From a virus (Duplodnaviria; Heunggongvirae; Uroviricota; Caudoviricetes): a stretch of 13,326 bases of DNA. Under the pieces are notes generated by a model that made no database searches, was not told where the DNA came from, and saw nothing but the letters and a program-made list of their open reading frames with translations. Below are positions 3,715 to 13,326 of the stretch, one piece after another. The first letter of the stretch is position 1, and every line of letters starts with the position of its first letter. The stretch is from the IMG/VR virus record IMGVR_UViG_2690316062_000002. One strand, written 5' to 3'. The translations under genes and the position numbers were made by a program.

Positions 3715-4071
3715 TTAAAAAATCAGAACGCCGTGCGGCCTCAACACCCGAAAAGCTTCTTTAAATCTCTGTCGCAAATCATCACGCCAGGCATCTTTAT
3801 TCAGCCGTCCATATTTCTTTCCCATCCAGGCGTTATCACCAACACGCTCAAGATGCGGAGGGTCTAATACAACCATCGAAAAAGATGCGTCTGCAAATGA
3901 TAATGCACGAAAATCTGCGATAATGTCAGGGCTGATAATCAAGCGTCTCCCATTGCGTAATGTGTATCCTTCTTTTCTGATATCGCTGAATATCGCCCGT
4001 TTGTCAGACTTATCGAACCAGAACATGCGGCTGCCACAGCACATATCAAGAATGGTTGCCGGTGCACTCAC
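3715..4071 (-). CDS. SAM-dependent N-methyltransferase-like protein (118 aa), possibly truncated
   Basis: GTG start at 4071-4069 overlapping the upstream TGA (GTGA junction); glycine-loop-like ILDMCCGS near the N-terminus and VLDPPH about 58 residues later, the order seen in amino-methyltransferases; 118 aa is short for a complete fold and the frame stays open for 30 codons past the TAA. Confidence 0.55.
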   Translation of the reverse strand: MSAPATILDMCCGSRMFWFDKSDKRAIFSDIRKEGYTLRNGRRLIISPDIIADFRALSFADASFSMVVLDPPHLERVGDNAWMGKKYGRLNKDAWRDDLRQRFKEAFRVLRPHGVLIF

Positions 4072-4490
4072 TGCGCCACGTCCTGAAAATTACCCTGATA
4101 GAAAGCCAGTATGCGCTGCATAACTTCGCTCTTCCGGCACTCGCGACAGATTATGTTTAGGCGACTGTCGTAGCGACGTATTTCTCCGTCAGGTGATGAC
4201 CAGATAAGGTCCGGATCAACCACAGCAGGTTTCTTCACCTTTGCCCTCGAGAGTTTTTTGCGGGCGTTTTGCCAGTCCTTACGCGCCTGTTCAGAGGGGA
4301 ATAACCCGTAGCCGGAGTTGTATACATCGCCACTGGCTACCAGCTCTCTGGCAAGAACGCTCATCAGATATCTAGTCGCACCTGTTTTAGCTTCCAGTTG
4401 CCGTAACGTCTCACGGCCGCTCTGGCGCACGAGTTCCACCACCTGCCATTTAATTTTTTCCCGCTCTTCTTGTGTAAAAACTTTTGCCAC
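4068..4490 (-). CDS. hypothetical protein (140 aa) with putative winged-helix DNA-binding segment, translationally coupled to the methyltransferase
   Basis: GTG start at 4490-4488 with strong AAGGGGG 5-6 nt upstream; segment RETLRQLEAKTGATRYLMSVLARELV looks HTH-like; stop overlaps the next start. Confidence 0.55.
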   Translation of the reverse strand: MAKVFTQEEREKIKWQVVELVRQSGRETLRQLEAKTGATRYLMSVLARELVASGDVYNSGYGLFPSEQARKDWQNARKKLSRAKVKKPAVVDPDLIWSSPDGEIRRYDSRLNIICRECRKSEVMQRILAFYQGNFQDVAQ

Positions 4491-4530
4491 CAGTCCCCCT
4501 TAAAATTACCTCATGACCTGAAATCAACAC

Positions 4531-5496
4531 TTATCCTCTGAAACCAGGCGGAATTTCTGTATCCGGTTCAGAAATATGATTAACACAACGCTGTACAGGT
4601 GAACGTCCCAGGCGGATGACCAGTTCGTCCCATTTTTCGCGGAGCTTTGACGGGCTCATGATGTTTTTTACCCAGAATGGATCTCGCTGAACCCGACCAA
4701 ACATTTCGCAAATTTGGCTGTGGCTTCTGCCATCCAGCATCCGCATTGTGCGCACGTCATTGGCCCAGGCAGTCCAGTTAGGCTCTTTTGGTCGCATGAT
4801 CTCGCCATCATCACTGGCTGCCTGTTCGTAGAGACCCACGATCCGCCCCCAGATCCACTGCGCACACGCCAAATCCTCCCTGCTACCCCACTGGCGTTTT
4901 TTCGCACTAAACACAACCGCGTCGGAGTTCCGGGTTAAAGAATCCTGTTCAGTCGTCTGCGGGTCCGGTTGCGAAGCTTCCGGACGAAAAGTGTTTTTAT
5001 TCTCTGTAGTAATCTCTGTTGTATTCTCTGTAAGATCATCAGGCCATTTTGACCCGATGACATTGGGTCGTTTTGAACTAATGGAGCGTTTCATTTTGAC
5101 CTCTTCCATCGTGTCATTTTGACCTGATGGAGCGGCGCATTTTGAACCGATGGATTCGCTCAATTTGCCACCATCTAAAAGCTCGCTCCCATAGTTGATC
5201 GTGTAGAAATTGGTCATATCGCGCTTTGATTTATTGAGCTTTTCACAACGCAAAAGCCCCAGCGTTTTCAGACTTGCAAACGCGCGCTTTAACGTTGACT
5301 CTGACCAGAATGGGAACTGTTCCAGCCATTGTTCCGTTGTGTTATAAATCCAGCGAACACCATCACATTCCATGCCGGAGTTGGTATCTCTCAACCAGTA
5401 GTGCAGTTGTTGCAAAACAATGGCTTCGTTTAAGCCAATTTTCATTGCCAGCTGCGTGTTTATAACCAGTGGGCGTTCAGCAAAAAGAAGGCTCAT
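4531..5496 (-). CDS. phage replication initiator (lambda O-like replisome organizer) carrying an internal iteron origin
   Basis: ATG at 5496-5494 preferred over the TTG at 5550; N-terminal NEAIVLQQLHYWL-type organizer motif; low-complexity linker encoded by the iteron region; conserved C-terminal domain. Confidence 0.75.
   Translation of the reverse strand: MSLLFAERPLVINTQLAMKIGLNEAIVLQQLHYWLRDTNSGMECDGVRWIYNTTEQWLEQFPFWSESTLKRAFASLKTLGLLRCEKLNKSKRDMTNFYTINYGSELLDGGKLSESIGSKCAAPSGQNDTMEEVKMKRSISSKRPNVIGSKWPDDLTENTTEITTENKNTFRPEASQPDPQTTEQDSLTRNSDAVVFSAKKRQWGSREDLACAQWIWGRIVGLYEQAASDDGEIMRPKEPNWTAWANDVRTMRMLDGRSHSQICEMFGRVQRDPFWVKNIMSPSKLREKWDELVIRLGRSPVQRCVNHISEPDTEIPPGFRG
4999..5034. repeat. 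three tandem 12-bp repeats (ATTCTCTGTAGT / AATCTCTGTTGT / ATTCTCTGTAAG) beside the iterons
   Basis: Tandem units at 4999-5010, 5011-5022 and 5023-5034 in an AT-rich stretch; plausible DNA-unwinding or accessory-factor element of the origin. Confidence 0.4.
5045..5159. repeat. five direct iterons (consensus CATTTTGAMCYGATGG), putative prophage replication origin
   Basis: Iteron starts at 5045, 5069, 5092, 5115 and 5138 (spacing 22-25 bp), inside the initiator gene as in lambda ori. Confidence 0.6.
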
Positions 5497-5998
5497 AATT
5501 CCATCCAGCTTTTTGTTGGTATTGCTGTCGATACGCAAGCTTGAAAGCAATTGCTTTTTCTATAAGTTCGTCAGTTTCACGATCCACTACGGCAGGATCA
5601 GCAAAAAGCAGTCCGGACTCCACCACATCGCCATATTCTTTGTTTAACCCGGCGATCATGCACGTGATGCTTTTTCCGTCAGTAATTTCACGATACAACC
5701 TGAAATCACTAATCCGGATAGCCTCCATAATCGCAGGCACTAGCGCCGTGAACTTTTCACGCTTATCCCTGGTGTCGATAGCCTTCCAGCGTTCGAATAT
5801 CTTCACTCGATTAACACCAAGCGCTCGCTGATCAACCGCGCCACCTTCATCTGTGACACGCTGAACATCGATGTTCGGGCGCTCTTTCAAAGCCCAGAAT
5901 GCTTCAGTGATTAATATCGTCGCCTGCTCCTGTGTCATTCCTGGTCGACATATCCAGGCATCCAGAGCCTCACGAGCCTGTTCAGGAGTGATTTTCAT
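5477..5998 (-). CDS. YdaT-like prophage protein (173 aa) in the cII position
   Basis: ATG at 5998-5996; lies between the Cro-like gene and the replication initiator, overlapping dicC by 17 nt and the initiator by 20 nt; family assignment is from recalled similarity to Rac-type YdaT, unverified. Confidence 0.6.
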   Translation of the reverse strand: MKITPEQAREALDAWICRPGMTQEQATILITEAFWALKERPNIDVQRVTDEGGAVDQRALGVNRVKIFERWKAIDTRDKREKFTALVPAIMEAIRISDFRLYREITDGKSITCMIAGLNKEYGDVVESGLLFADPAVVDRETDELIEKAIAFKLAYRQQYQQKAGWNYEPSFC

Positions 5999-6212
5999 TG
6001 TTCAACCACCCCGCCCGCTTCGTCTTACGATATTCATCATAAACTTTGGGATCATACTGAAGCTCCCCGCCAGATGCCTCCTGTAGACGCATCGCGCGAC
6101 CTTCGGGAACTAAATCCCCTTTCCAGCTATAAAGCGAAGCCAAACGAATACCTGCTGCTTGTGCAAGTTTTGTTTTTGAACCGAAATACAAAAGAGCGTC
6201 AGTTTTAAGCAT
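5982..6212 (-). CDS. dicC: DicC, Cro-like repressor of the division-inhibition operon
   Basis: 76 aa, MLKTDALLYFGSKTKLAQAAGIR... HTH; divergent from dicA; AAAGGTG RBS 6 nt upstream; length and sequence match my recollection of K-12 DicC. Confidence 0.8.
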   Translation of the reverse strand: MLKTDALLYFGSKTKLAQAAGIRLASLYSWKGDLVPEGRAMRLQEASGGELQYDPKVYDEYRKTKRAGWLNNENHS

Positions 6213-6295
6213 TTAAAACACCTTTATTGTTAGTCATAACTAACAAGATAGATGTTAACAAAAACATAGTCAATACGATTTAGCATTAGCTAACT
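6213..6295. promoter_or_regulatory. divergent dicC/dicA promoter-operator region
   Basis: Operator palindromes TGTTAGT-CATA-ACTAACA (6228-6245) and TTAGC-ATTA-GCTAA (6280-6293); central palindrome TGTTAACA (6253-6260); leftward promoter with -35 TTGACT (6273-6268), 17-bp spacer and -10 TATCTT (6250-6245) overlapped by the first operator. Confidence 0.6.
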
Positions 6296-6703
6296 ATGGA
6301 AACAAAAAATTTAACTATCGGCGAACGCATCAGGTATCGTCGGAAAAACCTCAAACACACCCAAAGGTCTCTTGCTAAAGCCCTGAAAATCTCCCATGTG
6401 TCTGTATCACAATGGGAACGGGGTGATAGTGAACCTACAGGGAAGAACCTTTTTGCCCTCAGCAAAGTATTGCAATGCTCACCAACATGGATTCTATTTG
6501 GCGATGAAGACAAGCAACCAACACCACCTGTTGAGAAGCCAGTTGCCTTATCCCCCAAAGAACTAGAGCTCCTTGAGCTGTTTAATGCACTGCCAGAATC
6601 AGAACAGGATACCCAGCTCGCCGAAATGCGAGCTCGAGTAAAAAACTTCAATAAACTCTTTGAAGAATTACTAAAAGCCCGTCAGCGGACAAATAAAAGA
6701 TAA
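6296..6703 (+). CDS. dicA: DicA, CI/C2-like HTH repressor
   Basis: 135 aa; N-terminal XRE-type HTH (RIRYRRKNLKHTQRSLAKALKISHVSVSQWERG); position and length match my recollection of K-12 DicA. Confidence 0.85.
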   Translation: METKNLTIGERIRYRRKNLKHTQRSLAKALKISHVSVSQWERGDSEPTGKNLFALSKVLQCSPTWILFGDEDKQPTPPVEKPVALSPKELELLELFNALPESEQDTQLAEMRARVKNFNKLFEELLKARQRTNKR

Positions 6704-7970: not shown

Positions 7971-8159
7971 ATGAAAACGTTATTACCAAACGTTAATACG
8001 TCTGAAGGTTGTTTTGAAATTGGTGTCACTATCAGTAACCCAGTATTTACTGAAGATGCCATTAACAAGAGAAAACAAGAACGGGAGCTATTAAATAAAA
8101 TATGCATTGTTTCAATGCTGGCTCGTTTACGTCTGATGCCAAAAGGATGTGCACAATGA
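7971..8159 (+). CDS. dicB: DicB, cell-division inhibitor (MinC-dependent), 62 aa
   Basis: ATG at 7971 with GAGGA 8 nt upstream; MKTLLPNVNTSEGCFEIGVTISNPVFTEDAINKRKQERELLNKICIVSMLARLRLMPKGCAQ; the listed ORF from 7866 is a GTG-started extension. Confidence 0.8.
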   Translation: MKTLLPNVNTSEGCFEIGVTISNPVFTEDAINKRKQERELLNKICIVSMLARLRLMPKGCAQ

Positions 8160-11235: not shown

Positions 11236-11269
11236 CTAAAAGCCACACTAACTAATGAGAGAAGTTGAA

Positions 11270-12550
11270 ATGAAATATCCGACAGGCGTGGAAAACCATG
11301 GAGGGAAATTACGTATCTGGTTTGTTTATAAAGGCGTAAGAGTCAGGGAAAACCTGGGGGTTCCTGACACAGCAAAAAACAGGCGCGTTGCAGGTGAGCT
11401 ACGCGCCTCTGTTTGTTACGCAATAAAAACTGGTGTTTTCGACTATGCAAAACAGTTTCCCTCCTCACGCAATCTGGAAAAATTTGGTGAGACTCGACAA
11501 GATTTAACCATAAAAAAACTGGCTGAAAAATTTCTGGCACTGAAAGAAACTGAAGTCGCAAAAACATCACTCAACACATACCGTGCCGTCATCAAAAATA
11601 TCCTGAGCATAATCGGTGAAAAAAATCTTGCCTCATCGATTAATAAAGAAAAATTACTGGAGGTTCGTAAAGAGCTACTGACTGGATACCAGATCCCCAA
11701 AAGTAACTATATTGTTACACAACCAGGGAGATCGGCTGTAACTGTAAATAATTACATGACAAATCTTAACGCCGTGTTCCAGTTTGGTGTTGATAACGGT
11801 TACCTGGCAGATAACCCGTTTAAGGGGATCTCGCCATTAAAGGAATCAAGAACCATTCCGGATCCTCTTTCGCGGGAGGAATTCATCCGTCTTATCGATG
11901 CGTGCAGAAATCAGCAAGCCAAAAATTTATGGTGTGTTTCTGTTTATACTGGCGTTCGCCCTGGTGAGCTGTGTGCACTTGGATGGGAGGACATAGATCT
12001 GAAAAATGGAACAATGATGATCAGGAGAAATTTAGCAAAAGACCGTTTCACGGTACCAAAAACACAGGCGGGAACCAATCGGGTCATTCATCTTATTAAG
12101 CCAGCAATCGACGCTCTCCGGAGTCAGATGACATTAACGAGACTGAGCAAAGAGCATATCATTGATGTTCACCTCAGAGAGTATGGCAGAACAGAAAAAC
12201 ATAAATGCACCTTTGTTTTTCAACCTGAAGTGTCAGCGAGAGTAAAAAATTATGGTGACCATTTTACCGTTGACTCAATAAGGCAGATGTGGGACGCAGC
12301 GATAAAACGTGCCGGACTCCGCCATCGAAAATCATATCAGTCGAGACATACTTATGCCTGCTGGTCGCTGACAGCTGGTGCTAATCCGGCATTTATAGCA
12401 AACCAGATGGGCCATGCAGATGCGCAAATGGTATTTCAGGTATACGGAAAATGGATGTCTGAAAACAATAATGCACAGGTAGCTTTGTTAAATACACAGT
12501 TAAGCGAGTTTGCCCCAACCATGCCCCATAACGAAGCAATGAAAAATTAA
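11270..12550 (+). CDS. intQ: phage tyrosine integrase (lambda-type), about 426 aa
   Basis: C-terminal catalytic signature (R in TGVRPGE, HxxR in HTYACW, Y in VFQVYGKW); ATG 11270 preferred over 11255; symbol by synteny with the Qin locus. Confidence 0.85.
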   Translation: MKYPTGVENHGGKLRIWFVYKGVRVRENLGVPDTAKNRRVAGELRASVCYAIKTGVFDYAKQFPSSRNLEKFGETRQDLTIKKLAEKFLALKETEVAKTSLNTYRAVIKNILSIIGEKNLASSINKEKLLEVRKELLTGYQIPKSNYIVTQPGRSAVTVNNYMTNLNAVFQFGVDNGYLADNPFKGISPLKESRTIPDPLSREEFIRLIDACRNQQAKNLWCVSVYTGVRPGELCALGWEDIDLKNGTMMIRRNLAKDRFTVPKTQAGTNRVIHLIKPAIDALRSQMTLTRLSKEHIIDVHLREYGRTEKHKCTFVFQPEVSARVKNYGDHFTVDSIRQMWDAAIKRAGLRHRKSYQSRHTYACWSLTAGANPAFIANQMGHADAQMVFQVYGKWMSENNNAQVALLNTQLSEFAPTMPHNEAMKN

Positions 12551-12737: not shown

Positions 12738-13326
12738 TTATTCAGAAAAAGTGAGTAAGACTTTGCAGCAATGTTTTTGATCCTGTTCAAATAAACTAAT
12801 GGCATCAGCAACATGCTGGAAATCAAACGTATGGGTAATTAATTTTTCTGGTTTAATTAACCCTTTACTTAACCAGTCGATAACGACCGGGAATTTATTT
12901 GCATTTAAGCGTGAAGAGAAAATAGAGAGTTCTTTTCCGGTAATTCCTTGCTGAATCACTTCAGACGGTTCACTGGAGAAACCCATCAATACAATACGTG
13001 CCGCTGGAGAAGCCAGCGTTACGGCCTCTTTCAGGATAGAAGGATGACAAGCCGCATCAATAATTAATGTCGGCTTGATGCCTTTTTCAGTGAAAATCTC
13101 GCCAAGCGGTGTCTGGCTGTTATTAATCGCCCAGTCAGCCCCGCTCTCTTTCGCTTTTTCCAGTCGTTCATCAATGCGATCGGCAACAATCACATTTTTA
13201 ACGTTATAGACGCCTTTTAATACCTGAACGATCGTCAGGCCGATTGGACCGGCACCATAAACCAGAACGGGGTGATGCTGCCAACTTACTGATTTAGTGT
13301 ATGATGGTGTTTTTGAGGTGCTCCAG
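12738..13326 (-). CDS. rspB: Zn-dependent medium-chain dehydrogenase, C-terminal part (N-terminus beyond the window edge)
   Basis: Frame open to the window edge on the minus strand; GAGPIG Rossmann motif encoded near 13250; the rspB symbol comes from recalled K-12 synteny (intQ next to rspB), not from sequence identity. Confidence 0.7.
   Translation of the reverse strand, partial: WSTSKTPSYTKSVSWQHHPVLVYGAGPIGLTIVQVLKGVYNVKNVIVADRIDERLEKAKESGADWAINNSQTPLGEIFTEKGIKPTLIIDAACHPSILKEAVTLASPAARIVLMGFSSEPSEVIQQGITGKELSIFSSRLNANKFPVVIDWLSKGLIKPEKLITHTFDFQHVADAISLFEQDQKHCCKVLLTFSE

Follow-up and report, generated by a model that had tools for sequence, protein, structure and literature searches.

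The initiators of RepA_N-type plasmids bind iterons through a winged-helix domain and have their origin iterons inside the rep gene itself, and for iteron plasmids without loader genes (pSC101, F, P1, RK2) helicase delivery via DnaA is the established solution. Among enterobacterial lambdoid phages, 34 of 314 (~11%) have O-only modules, i.e. an O-type gene with neither helicase nor loader, and how these replicate 'is not yet understood' (PMC12315714, Genome Res 2025). The text of this survey holds 0 occurrences of DnaT, the host protein whose C-terminal stretch has been described elsewhere as a highly flexible 20-residue tail (PMC5778457).

Our reading of the window (the whole stretch of 13,326 nucleotides analysed here, IMG/VR record IMGVR_UViG_2690316062_000002) is that of an mEp460/HannyBb-type lambdoid prophage of E. 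coli with a vegetative replication origin within its own initiator gene, a reading we consider likely with the mechanism below included; that 4531-5496 contains a functional origin-initiator pair seems to us very likely. The initiator matches PHROG 391 'replication initiation O-like' (E = 7e-91), and it is annotated as the O-like gene in three phages that are 97-99.6% identical to the window in the replication region (PhiR42_1, HannyBb and mEp460_ev081). The gene occurs in 1849 of 5426 complete E. coli genomes (about one third), and its RefSeq label is 'hypothetical protein' in all records among the matches listed. Searches of Pfam and NCBIfam assigned it to no family, the sole match being a 20-residue DnaT tail far under the curated cut-off. 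Reading from a pR-like promoter in the cI-cro gap, the gene order is cro - cII/YdaT-like - initiator, and this putative promoter, a consensus match only, may direct transcription through all three genes and hence through the origin (Table 1). The window prophage also has an IS element and a truncated methyltransferase gene and may itself be defective.

Table 1. Coordinates of the origin, its initiator gene and neighbouring elements in the window (iteron sequences are those of the gene strand).
Feature	Position	Strand	Remarks
Replication initiator gene	4531-5496	-	321 aa; ATG at 5496, TAA at 4531-4533
N-terminal winged-helix domain	5194-5469	-	residues ~10-101; AF2 topology H-H-b-H-H-hairpin, pLDDT 60-80
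Degenerate iteron 1, possible	5153-5175		GATGGTGGCAAATTGAGCGAATC; uncertain
Iteron 2	5130-5152		CATCGGTTCAAAATGCGCCGCTC
Iteron 3	5107-5129		CATCAGGTCAAAATGACACGATG; full dyad, self-complementary at 16/23
Iteron 4	5084-5106		GAAGAGGTCAAAATGAAACGCTC; half-site
Iteron 5	5061-5083		CATTAGTTCAAAACGACCCAATG
Iteron 6	5037-5059		CATCGGGTCAAAATGGCCTGATG; full dyad; lowest variation of all units across alleles
Three tandem 12-mers	4998-5033		gene strand TACAGAGAATAC / AACAGAGATTAC / TACAGAGAATAA; A-rich, AT-rich; found by TRF and repeat search
Helical C-domain	4609-4890	-	residues ~203-296; AF2 helices, pLDDT 60-80
Disordered C-terminal tail	4534-4608	-	residues 297-321; disordered in AF2 model
Spacer between initiator and lygF	4491-4530	-	40 bp; site of DnaC-like gene in sibling prophages
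pR-like promoter	6245-6273	-	TTGACT-17-TATCTT in cI-cro gap; consensus match only

The N-domain of the initiator is a winged-helix family other than PF04492 (Phage_rep_O), a profile matched by lambda O, P22 gp18 and Gifsy-2 O (1e-30 to 1e-38) but not by the window initiator even at E <= 10. From the AF2 model, which has a mean pLDDT of 50.7 on a shallow 15-sequence alignment, we took only domain boundaries and winged-helix topology. With the modelled N-domain as Foldseek query all top matches are winged-helix DNA binders; the best of them, 5kbj and 4pql (which we take to be the N-domain/iteron complex of staphylococcal pSK41/pTZ2162 plasmid RepA), are weak (E ~0.015, TM 0.52-0.55) and obtained on a model of low confidence. 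On this modelling evidence the N-domain is presumed to be the iteron-binding domain. The central region between the two domains encodes a disordered linker in the same model, and the C-domain is, judged by its sequence, homologous to that of lambda O (33% identity between initiator residues 147-294 and lambda O 135-270 by BLASTP, E = 4e-25; PHROG 2357 common to both).

Five direct repeats had been described in an earlier note on this DNA. All five are there, with the core C[A/G]TTTTGA[A/C]C starting on the + strand at 5045, 5069, 5092, 5115 and 5138 (successive spacings of 24, 23, 23 and 23 bp), but the full 16-mer given in that note is exact only at 5115 and 5138: the copy at 5045 differs in its last base, the one at 5069 has two changes and the one at 5092 retains the 5' half only. 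The repeats are better seen as five clear and one degenerate dyad-symmetric units of 23 bp (5037-5175) that adjoin the 12-mers, the unit being a near-palindrome with the gene-strand consensus CATCAGGTCA-AAA-TGACCCGATG, self-complementary at 18 of 23 positions. The degenerate unit, at 62% identity to the repeat family, lies in phase at 23 bp and is more variable across alleles. Chance as the origin of this cluster is ruled out, as an exact 8-mer occurring four times in 120 nt arose in none of 1000 dinucleotide-preserving shuffles (the maximum was three copies, in 2.8% of the shuffles). Neither is the repeat driven by protein: since a period of 23 bp is not a multiple of 3, successive iterons fall into different frames and, using all three, are translated as IGSKC, SGQND, EVKMK, ISSKR and IGSKW. 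In one complete sibling phage genome, full iterons are found nowhere outside the initiator gene. Iterons differ with the type of N-domain while their layout is kept, as seen for Gifsy-2, Tritos and LLS; a repeat search that missed the short GTCACG iterons of Tritos found no convincing internal iterons in Rac ydaU, the Klebsiella ST11 phage or SPN1S.

The 12-mers of the earlier note are likewise present, but their order relative to the iterons has to be reversed, because in gene orientation (minus strand) the iterons come first and the 12-mers after, as in lambda. This block is the presumed DNA-unwinding element, an assignment made from its sequence: the lowest-stability 36 bp of the whole initiator gene are 4993-5028 (~2.8 SD above the gene mean), and the gene strand of 4998-5033 has a composition (A 0.53, AT 0.71, purine 0.67) close to that of the lambda AT-rich region (0.57, 0.74 and 0.68). 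The 12-mers are in frame, encoding the peptides TENT/TEIT/TENK, and their third-position diversity is 0.003 as compared to 0.13-0.17 in the domains. Phage Tritos has the same 3x12 ACAGA block after different iterons, and DNA homology to a Klebsiella phage with a different C-domain begins exactly at 4998; N-domain, iterons and 12-mers have been inherited as a single block with another C-domain in that phage.

How the region varies across 56 initiator alleles separates DNA from protein. The N-domain has variable-site fractions of 0.07/0.05/0.52 at codon positions 1/2/3 and the C-domain of 0.12/0.17/0.60, a periodicity of the flanking domains that is absent from the iterons (0.21/0.30/0.21) and the 12-mers (0/0.17/0.08). 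Purely synonymous changes affect 4 of 47 iteron codons versus 50 of 107 N-domain codons, and variation at third positions is seen in 11 of 59 sites within the origin and 151 of 262 outside it (Fisher p = 4e-8). Amino acids of the iteron region vary at 38% of codons with synonymous sites almost frozen, and this combination with aperiodic variation shows selection on the DNA rather than the protein at iterons and 12-mers. DNA-level selection, the least stable DNA of the gene and iterons unique to it in a complete sibling genome all uphold the proposal, made in the earlier note, of an origin within the initiator gene.

As for helicase loading, the window gave no tblastn match to lambda P, to any of three DnaC-like loaders or to P22 gp12, PHROG scans identified none of the other window ORFs as a replication protein, and in the complete HannyBb genome, which is 98% identical where the replication regions were compared, no gene is annotated as helicase, loader, primase or polymerase. 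By these searches, window and HannyBb have what defines an O-only module, an O-type gene without helicase or loader. The earlier claim that no P-like or DnaC-like gene follows the initiator is upheld, with the refinement that about a quarter of near-identical sibling prophages have a DnaC-like gene at this very place. This YdaV-type gene begins 6-7 bp past the initiator stop in 19 of 73 sibling loci and is followed by ydaW and/or lygF, as in Rac, next to an initiator that is 93-95% identical; in 50 other siblings lygF comes directly after the spacer (41-43 nt by script count). No fixed amino-acid difference distinguishes the initiators with (19) from those without (50) the YdaV-type gene. With roughly one sibling in four having a DnaC-like gene, the loader is optional rather than foreign to the module, and the spacer shows a weak resemblance to the 3' end of the DnaC-like gene plus the lygF ribosome-binding site. 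We also considered LygF/DUF977 as a hidden loader and rejected it, as it lies downstream in DnaC-type modules too, and the gene next in line is an unrelated one in other O-only modules (DUF1064, PerC, methyltransferase).

What the initiator does have is a DnaT-like end. Its last 21 residues (VQRCVNHISEPDTEIPPGFRG; tail peptide VNHISEPDTEIPPGFRG) correspond to the flexible tail at the C-terminus of host DnaT, with residues 301-321 aligning to DnaT 159-179, 14 of 21 identical to E. coli DnaT and PD..IP.GFRG-COOH invariant; hits include PDB entries 2ru8, 6aep and 9zbt_D and positions 160-179 of 179 in NCBIfam NF002770. The tail is invariant in seven initiators otherwise ~20% identical, as well as in Salmonella DnaT, its third codon positions vary at 76% with the peptide conserved, and it stands in place of the 29-residue end of lambda O. 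When 1.8 billion representatives were searched by phmmer, the last 40 residues gave only 24 matches, mostly fragments, the query being too short for this database. PF17948, the DnaT three-helix bundle, has no match in the window protein but is present in DnaT and the SPN1S initiator, and SPN1S-type initiators contain an entire DnaT C-domain (65% identical, E = 8e-43). Given that homology to the whole domain, we rejected pure molecular mimicry as the only reading of the tail. In the DnaT literature we searched, no residue-level contacts of residues 160-179 were found.

Initiator ends follow the loader type. Lambda-P modules end their initiator in ...WIYGV[DE]L (75 of 75), DnaC-type modules whose upstream ORF has 150 aa or more do so in ...IP[PS]GFRG (73 of 73), and in a motif-based survey of 103 tail-ending initiators the next gene was DnaC-type for 50, of no tested type for 53 (none of three tested loader/helicase families within 1.5 kb, so that a novel loader is possible) and lambda P or gp12 for 0 each, all of these being phylogenetically non-independent counts. 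The surveyed tail-ending initiators represent 10 N-domain/C-core combinations, and every O-only initiator examined has the DnaT-type tail. As a mark of O-only modules the tail was nonetheless rejected, because Rac, Gifsy and Stx phages have it beside DnaC-like genes. Since the lambda-type C-core is found with both types of end, the choice of loader tracks with the last ~27 residues. YdaV and DnaC share 49% identity, and in the host dnaT is separated by 2 bp from the neighbouring dnaC. The suggestion that helicase recruitment would use the initiator C-terminus or a host factor gains substance from the DnaT-like tail. That the tail recruits DnaB-DnaC-type complexes is our tentative preference, which we put at slightly short of an even chance; the wider notion that the ...PD..IP.GFRG-COOH peptide, common to DnaT and many initiators of phages, acts as a portable docking signal for complexes of DnaB with DnaC-type loaders is possible, if doubtful.

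Based on this, we envisage that transcription from the pR-like promoter would pass through cro, the cII/YdaT-like gene and the initiator gene, and that dimers of the initiator N-domain would bind the five or six dyad iterons (5037-5175). The resulting nucleoprotein complex could then destabilise the adjoining A-rich 3x12-bp block (4998-5033), and the tail may dock host DnaB-DnaC - or a phage DnaC-type loader if present - on the opened origin. Its part would be that of the lambda O C-terminus towards lambda P. Three reports speak against this model of the tail: a preprimosome paper proposes that DnaB/DnaC is recruited by the N-terminal domain of DnaT and not by its C-tail (PMC13377028), loss of DnaT 154-179 acts mainly on ssDNA affinity and cooperativity (PMC4132743), and DopC, a cellular O-like protein with a DnaT_C motif, lies beside a lambda-P-like gene and may be a counter-example (PMC5509034).

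An alternative, which we regard as unlikely, is that the tail recruits the PriA-dependent restart primosome by mimicking the contact of DnaT with PriA (or PriB), whereby PriA would come to sit at the opened origin, or at an R-loop formed in pR transcription, and DnaB would be loaded through the host pathway. This would be in line with a 2026 cryo-EM study of the preprimosome, in which DnaT contacts PriA HD2/CTD with its C-terminal domain by way of a conserved, hydrophobic interface (PMC13377028), with the hydrophobic nature of the conserved tail end IPPGF, with SPN1S-type initiators having the entire DnaT C-domain and with an origin that, going by the pR-like consensus match, may lie within an active transcript. 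The same study, however, does not assign the PriA contact to DnaT residues 160-179, the window protein has the tail only (no three-helix bundle by PF17948), and the tight pairing of the tail with phage DnaC-type loaders is more simply seen as a contact with loader or helicase.

It is quite unlikely, to our minds, that the tail is an ssDNA-binding or self-association element by which the initiator, in the manner of DnaT, would coat the unwound strand and keep it open, with the helicase arriving by another route (or, in a variant, that it binds host DnaT by imitating a DnaT-DnaT contact). DnaT without residues 154-179, i.e. cut at residue 153, mainly shows a lower ssDNA affinity, which is halved, and a lower cooperativity (PMC4132743). 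Yet a generic aid of this kind would not be expected to be absent from lambda-P and P22-type modules (0 of 103), nor to be the sole element kept when all other parts of the initiator are exchanged. Delivery of the helicase by host DnaA at the origin, with the tail irrelevant, we hold to be very unlikely: one-mismatch sequences resembling DnaA boxes occur at 4898-4906 and 5239-5247, but boxes are not enriched (38 versus 31 expected), no exact one lies in or beside the origin, and the sole exact match to the relaxed consensus (4471-4479) is inside lygF. Lambda-type origins are not known to have their helicase delivered by DnaA. That the repeats are no origin at all is hardly credible: a by-product of a repetitive low-complexity linker could be suspected where the region encodes a disordered linker and the 12-mers are in frame, and sites for autoregulation or incompatibility alone could be suspected because plasmid iterons also act in copy control, but the iteron period is out of frame with amino acids varying over frozen synonymous sites, the adjoining minimum-stability, A-rich, lambda-like block is needed by an origin and not by an operator, and lambda and P22 have annotated origins of the same layout.

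The origin described here is of ordinary, textbook design, and its value is mainly for annotation; the loader-less module is a recognised class, and for this the tail offers a testable mechanism, recruitment of host DnaB-DnaC. What makes the gap testable are near-identical initiators with and without a phage DnaC-like gene, the tail on the O-only initiators examined and its complete absence from lambda-P and P22-type modules. If the docking-signal reading were true, O-only lambdoid phages would rely directly on host DnaC, the DnaC-like gene of phages being dispensable. In that case, the PriA-PriB-DnaT preprimosome would also recruit DnaB-DnaC through this tail, as the element termed unknown in recent structural papers, and as a corollary, the host dnaT-dnaC operon would descend from a phage initiator-loader gene pair. 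As the same peptide occurs on DnaT, one binding assay could inform on DnaB-DnaC recruitment in phage and host alike.

Compared with known systems, the ori-in-O arrangement of lambda, recognised in the earlier note, is recovered in order, relative position, core, strand composition and a homologous C-domain (E = 4e-25). In both, the origin lies inside the initiator gene between a DNA-binding N-domain and the C-domain (relative position 0.33-0.52 in the window, 0.39-0.53 in lambda) and in the pR operon after cro and cII, with several dyad-symmetric iterons about two helical turns apart, a central TCAAAAYG and an A-rich AT block directly after the iterons along transcription. They differ in that the N-domain of lambda O is PF04492 and that of the window belongs to another family, the window iterons are 23-bp units with different arms and number five or six instead of four, and the window AT block consists of three exact-phase 12-mers. 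The last ~27 residues are DnaT-type in the window (...IPPGFRG) as opposed to ...TDWIYGVDL in lambda, and there is no P gene.

The Rac YdaU-YdaV, Gifsy-1/2 O-DnaC and Stx-phage (75/02) modules share an initiator with a DnaT-type tail, but the window lost or never had the loader gene and lygF directly follows; N-domains and C-cores are different as well (PF04492 for the Gifsy N-domain, PHROG 2509 for YdaU). Phage LLS, which is viable, resembles the window in having a single O-type gene without helicase or loader, and its O has internal iterons and ends in ...IPEGFRG. It differs in its N-domain, its 15-bp iterons and a C-core of Phg_2220_C type. The closest cI/cro relative of LLS, mEp460_4F5, has an initiator of the window family. 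RepA_N-type plasmid initiators (4pql, 5kbj) are the best, albeit weak, structural matches of the window N-domain, without sequence similarity to it and with a different C-domain and different host factors. DopC joins an O-like HTH N-terminus and a DnaT C-terminal motif in one protein, a combination already on record in the paper describing it (Brezellec et al. 2017, PMC5509034). DopC, however, is chromosomal, lies off origin and has no iterons, its neighbour DopE is lambda-P-like rather than DnaC-like, and its DnaT_C motif may be the terminal peptide or the bundle alone. Finally, the window protein lacks the three-helix bundle and N-domain of DnaT and is predicted to be an origin-binding initiator, not a restart factor; what it shares with DnaT is the matching end of ~20 residues and, in sibling loci, a place beside a DnaC-type gene, just as in the dnaT-dnaC operon of the host.

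The initiator gene, assigned to PHROG 391 ('replication initiation O-like') at E = 7e-91, lies in a typical lambdoid early-right operon, and a pR-like promoter in the cI-cro gap (consensus match only) is directed through it. The window forms one end of a prophage, which may be decaying or itself defective since an IS has inserted downstream of the replication module and a neighbouring gene is truncated; despite both, origin and initiator are intact and share 98-99.6% identity with their counterparts in phage genome records. Identity to phages PhiR42_1, HannyBb (whose record gives bird faeces as the source and E. coli as the isolation host) and mEp460_ev081 amounts to 97-99.6% over 4400-5700. 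Of 5426 complete E. coli genomes, 1849 carry the initiator gene at a coverage of at least 80%. Its PGAP label is 'hypothetical protein' only, in eight of eight E. coli records among the matches listed, and some protein records (448 aa) appear to join it with the upstream YdaT-like ORF.

Features of the initiator gene and its surroundings (gene positions count along the initiator gene)
Feature	Position	Strand	Sequence or remark
initiator gene	4531-5496	minus	966 nt, 321 aa; origin repeats inside
degenerate iteron unit	gene position 322	gene strand	GATGGTGGCAAATTGAGCGAATC
iteron unit	gene position 345	gene strand	CATCGGTTCAAAATGCGCCGCTC
iteron unit	gene position 368	gene strand	CATCAGGTCAAAATGACACGATG
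iteron unit	gene position 391	gene strand	GAAGAGGTCAAAATGAAACGCTC
iteron unit	gene position 414	gene strand	CATTAGTTCAAAACGACCCAATG
iteron unit	gene position 438	gene strand	CATCGGGTCAAAATGGCCTGATG
three tandem 12-mers	4998-5033		TACAGAGAATAC, AACAGAGATTAC, TACAGAGAATAA; begin four bases past last iteron
cI-like repressor	6296-6703	plus	divergently transcribed from operon
cro-like	5982-6212		early-right operon
cII/YdaT-like	5477-5998		early-right operon, between cro-like and initiator
lygF/DUF977	4068-4490		after initiator
truncated methyltransferase gene	3715-4071		adjoins lygF; 118-aa fragment
integrase	11255-12550		then host dehydrogenase fragment
IS-type transposase	707-2048	minus	two ORFs, 1677-2048 and 707-1639 (PHROG 8463), as IS3-family orfA/orfB

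The five repeats and three 12-bp tandem repeats that the earlier note had described were both recovered by repeat search and TRF, as a 23-bp family and a 3x12-bp tandem. In the iteron consensus, CATCAGGTCA-AAA-TGACCCGATG, 18 of 23 positions are self-complementary, an arrangement expected where a dimer binds, and four exact CATTTTGA copies within 120 nt were reached by none of 1000 dinucleotide-preserving shuffles. Throughout the complete HannyBb genome, full dyad iterons are confined to the initiator gene (2 matches vs 0.05 expected). The 12-mers do lie in AT-rich DNA (AT 0.71), and the minimum-stability 36 bp of the entire gene fall at 4993-5028, about 2.8 SD above the gene mean. Elsewhere, a perfect 6-bp stem palindrome (TGGCTTCGTTTAAGCCA, 5421-5437) with a terminator-like score on both strands sits in the N-domain coding region, and TRF returned two-copy tandem repeats at 7975-7999 (13-bp period) and 12852-12874 (12-bp period), which are probably due to chance or related to an attachment site.

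Since a period of 23 bp is not divisible by three, successive iterons are read in different frames, translating as IGSKC, SGQND, EVKMK, ISSKR and IGSKW; 4998-5175 holds no overlapping ORF of 50 aa or more in any other frame or strand. We compared 56 distinct alleles from 80 IMG/VR loci with initiators 93-99% identical (at least 596 such loci exist). Fractions of variable sites at codon positions 1/2/3 are 0.07/0.05/0.52 in the N-domain and 0.12/0.17/0.60 in the C-domain vs 0.21/0.30/0.21 in the iterons and 0/0.17/0.08 in the 12-mers, so that both domains carry a protein-selection signature while iterons and 12-mers do not. Third-position diversity, 0.13-0.17 in the domains, drops to 0.026 for iterons and 0.003 for 12-mers, and variable third positions number 11/59 in the origin vs 151/262 elsewhere (Fisher p = 4e-8). 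Purely synonymous changes affect 4 of 47 iteron codons vs 50 of 107 in the N-domain, and 38% of iteron codons show amino-acid-changing variation. From this codon-position and synonymous-site pattern it follows that the origin sequence is kept as DNA, the encoded peptide being free to vary. The AF2 model agrees with this, placing a disordered stretch (residues 109-202, pLDDT ~25) between two folded domains, where the earlier note had described a low-complexity linker.

That no P-like or DnaC-like gene follows was likewise borne out: tblastn with lambda P, three DnaC-like loaders and P22 gp12 helicase found nothing in the window at E <= 1, with all positive controls detected, 'no loader' here meaning none of the three tested families. 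Its remaining ORFs are regulators, transposase, exonuclease, integrase and unknowns, and the annotation of HannyBb (45,272 bp, 90 CDS) lists neither a helicase nor a loader, primase or polymerase. The module belongs to the O-only class (O-type initiator gene, no helicase or loader gene) described in a 2025 Genome Research paper (PMC12315714). Phage mEp460_4F5, Klebsiella phage ST147-VIM1phi7.2 and Citrobacter and E. coli relatives are O-only too, over the 2.5-3 kb downstream examined.

Homology to lambda O stops at window residue 294 (lambda residue 270), past which 27 residues stand in place of lambda's 29 ending ...TDWIYGVDL. The last 21 (VQRCVNHISEPDTEIPPGFRG), here called the tail, align with the final residues of E. 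coli DnaT (PDB 2ru8, 6aep, 9zbt) and with positions 160-179 of 179 in NCBIfam NF002770. The pattern R.VN....PD..IP.GFRG-COOH is invariant in Salmonella DnaT and in seven phage initiators that share about 20% identity elsewhere, and among the 56 alleles 76% of third codon positions in the tail vary with the peptide kept. More distant relatives have a changed upstream part and keep [IV]-P-x-G-F-R-[GS]-COOH, among them a phage whose C-domain is entirely different and the O-only phage LLS (O protein ending ...IPEGFRG), whose publication mentions neither iterons nor DnaT in its accessible text.

Loader type correlates with the last ~27 initiator residues, not with N-domain or C-core, across loci whose counts are not phylogenetically independent: in loader-anchored samples, the initiator ends in ...WIYGV[DE]L in 75/75 lambda-P-type modules (33 distinct sequences), and in ...IP[PS]GFRG in 73/73 DnaC-type modules whose upstream ORF reaches 150 aa (50 distinct; two further loci have no such ORF). 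In the DnaC-type set there are no fewer than three classes of N-domain and two of C-core, and one of the latter, the lambda-type, is thus common to both end types. A motif-anchored sample, unbiased by loader, came from an IMG/VR scan for I-P-P-G-F-R-G-stop that kept 103 initiator-sized ORFs with sufficient downstream sequence; a DnaC-type loader is next in 50 (10 different N-domain/C-core combinations), 53 are without any tested loader within 1.5 kb, and lambda P or a gp12-type helicase follows none of the 103. Among 73 prophage loci with initiators near-identical to that of the window, 50 run straight into lygF and 19 have a gene for a DnaC-like protein of the YdaV (Rac) type 6-7 bp past the initiator stop, with zero fixed amino-acid differences between the two groups of initiators and the same tail. 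Both forms were seen for several other initiator types. The 40-bp initiator-lygF spacer (4491-4530) resembles the last codons and stop of these DnaC-like genes plus the lygF ribosome-binding site, a hint that the loader-less form may have arisen by deletion of the loader gene. Four such loci carry no DnaC-like gene behind the initiator and no lygF in its normal position.

Lambda genetics has established that P is contacted by the C-terminal part of O. By analogy, the DnaT-type tail might be the contact for DnaC-type loader-DnaB complexes, O-only phages simply using host DnaC, a reading we put at slightly below even chances; host DnaC, homologue of the dispensable phage loader, would then serve in its place. 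Host dnaT and dnaC are adjacent (2-bp gap), and because an SPN1S-type initiator carries the complete DnaT C-domain beyond the tail alone (65% identity over 94 residues, E = 8e-43, PF17948; Salmonella phage SPN1S 2248-3063 vs Salmonella dnaT 2024-2563) and YdaV is 49% identical to DnaC (E = 9e-91), comparison suggests that the host operon and phage initiator-loader pairs may share ancestry. Against a tail-loader contact stands a 2026 paper on the preprimosome structure (PMC13377028), in which the DnaT N-domain is the proposed recruiter and the C-domain docks on PriA and forms filaments on ssDNA. The tail may instead recruit PriA or the restart primosome. It may also serve in ssDNA binding or oligomerisation, given that tail truncation chiefly weakens ssDNA binding (PMC4132743). 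Nor does the O-like DopC, whose DnaT_C motif was noted in 2017 in this cellular protein, fit easily with a tail-loader contact, as it adjoins a P-like gene (PMC5509034). For a further alternative, DnaA-assisted helicase loading, neither DnaA-box enrichment nor an exact box was found at the origin. RAST-style annotations name some such initiator genes 'primosomal protein I', yet no paper in the literature searched ties the tail to loader choice or O-only phages, which makes the association - computational, as are all our results - a new, testable lead.

Origins inside O-type genes are textbook knowledge, and the lambda ori-in-O arrangement proposed in the earlier note holds for layout, core, unwinding-block composition and C-domain. 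Lambda has four annotated iterons at gene positions 349-433 of 900, then an AT-rich region; the window has iterons at 322-460 of 966, then 12-mers at 463-498. Lambda iterons (ATCCCTCAAAACGAGGGA) share the central TCAAAAYG with those of the window but differ in the arms, the unwinding blocks are almost alike (A/AT/purine on the gene strand 0.53/0.71/0.67 vs 0.57/0.74/0.68 in lambda) and lambda O 135-270 has its homologous counterpart in window residues 147-294 (33% identity, E = 4e-25). PF04492, the N-domain matching lambda O, P22 gp18 and Gifsy-2 O with E-values of 1e-30 or lower, has no match in the window initiator even at E <= 10. Residues 10-101 are instead predicted, from a weak structure model, to adopt a winged-helix topology, and all top Foldseek matches are winged-helix DNA binders, the best (weak scores) being 5kbj and 4pql, which we take to be the N-domain of a staphylococcal plasmid RepA, bound to iteron DNA in one of the two. 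Iteron sequence changes with N-domain type under an unchanged layout: Gifsy-2, with PF04492, has ATCCCCGAAAACGGGGA units, and LLS (PQ299149, 7516-7589) has an O gene with about five 15-bp units, roughly GCNTCAAAANCTGAYG. Same-N-domain relatives (mEp460_4F5, Citrobacter prophages, the Klebsiella phage) keep both the iteron cores and the three ACAGA 12-mers at the same gene positions, even with a replaced C-domain, and DNA homology to the Klebsiella phage starts precisely where the 12-mers have their outer edge, at 4998. Tritos shares the origin layout, with five GTCACG repeats (2383-2463, 10-11 bp spacing) directly upstream of 3x12-bp ACAGATAAAGAT inside the initiator gene, but its iteron and N-domain are unrelated; these short iterons were missed by automated repeat search. 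The window origin is a known design in a distinct combination, a loader-less module that joins a non-PF04492 N-domain, 23-bp dyad iterons and a 3x12-bp unwinding block to a lambda-type C-core and a DnaT tail.
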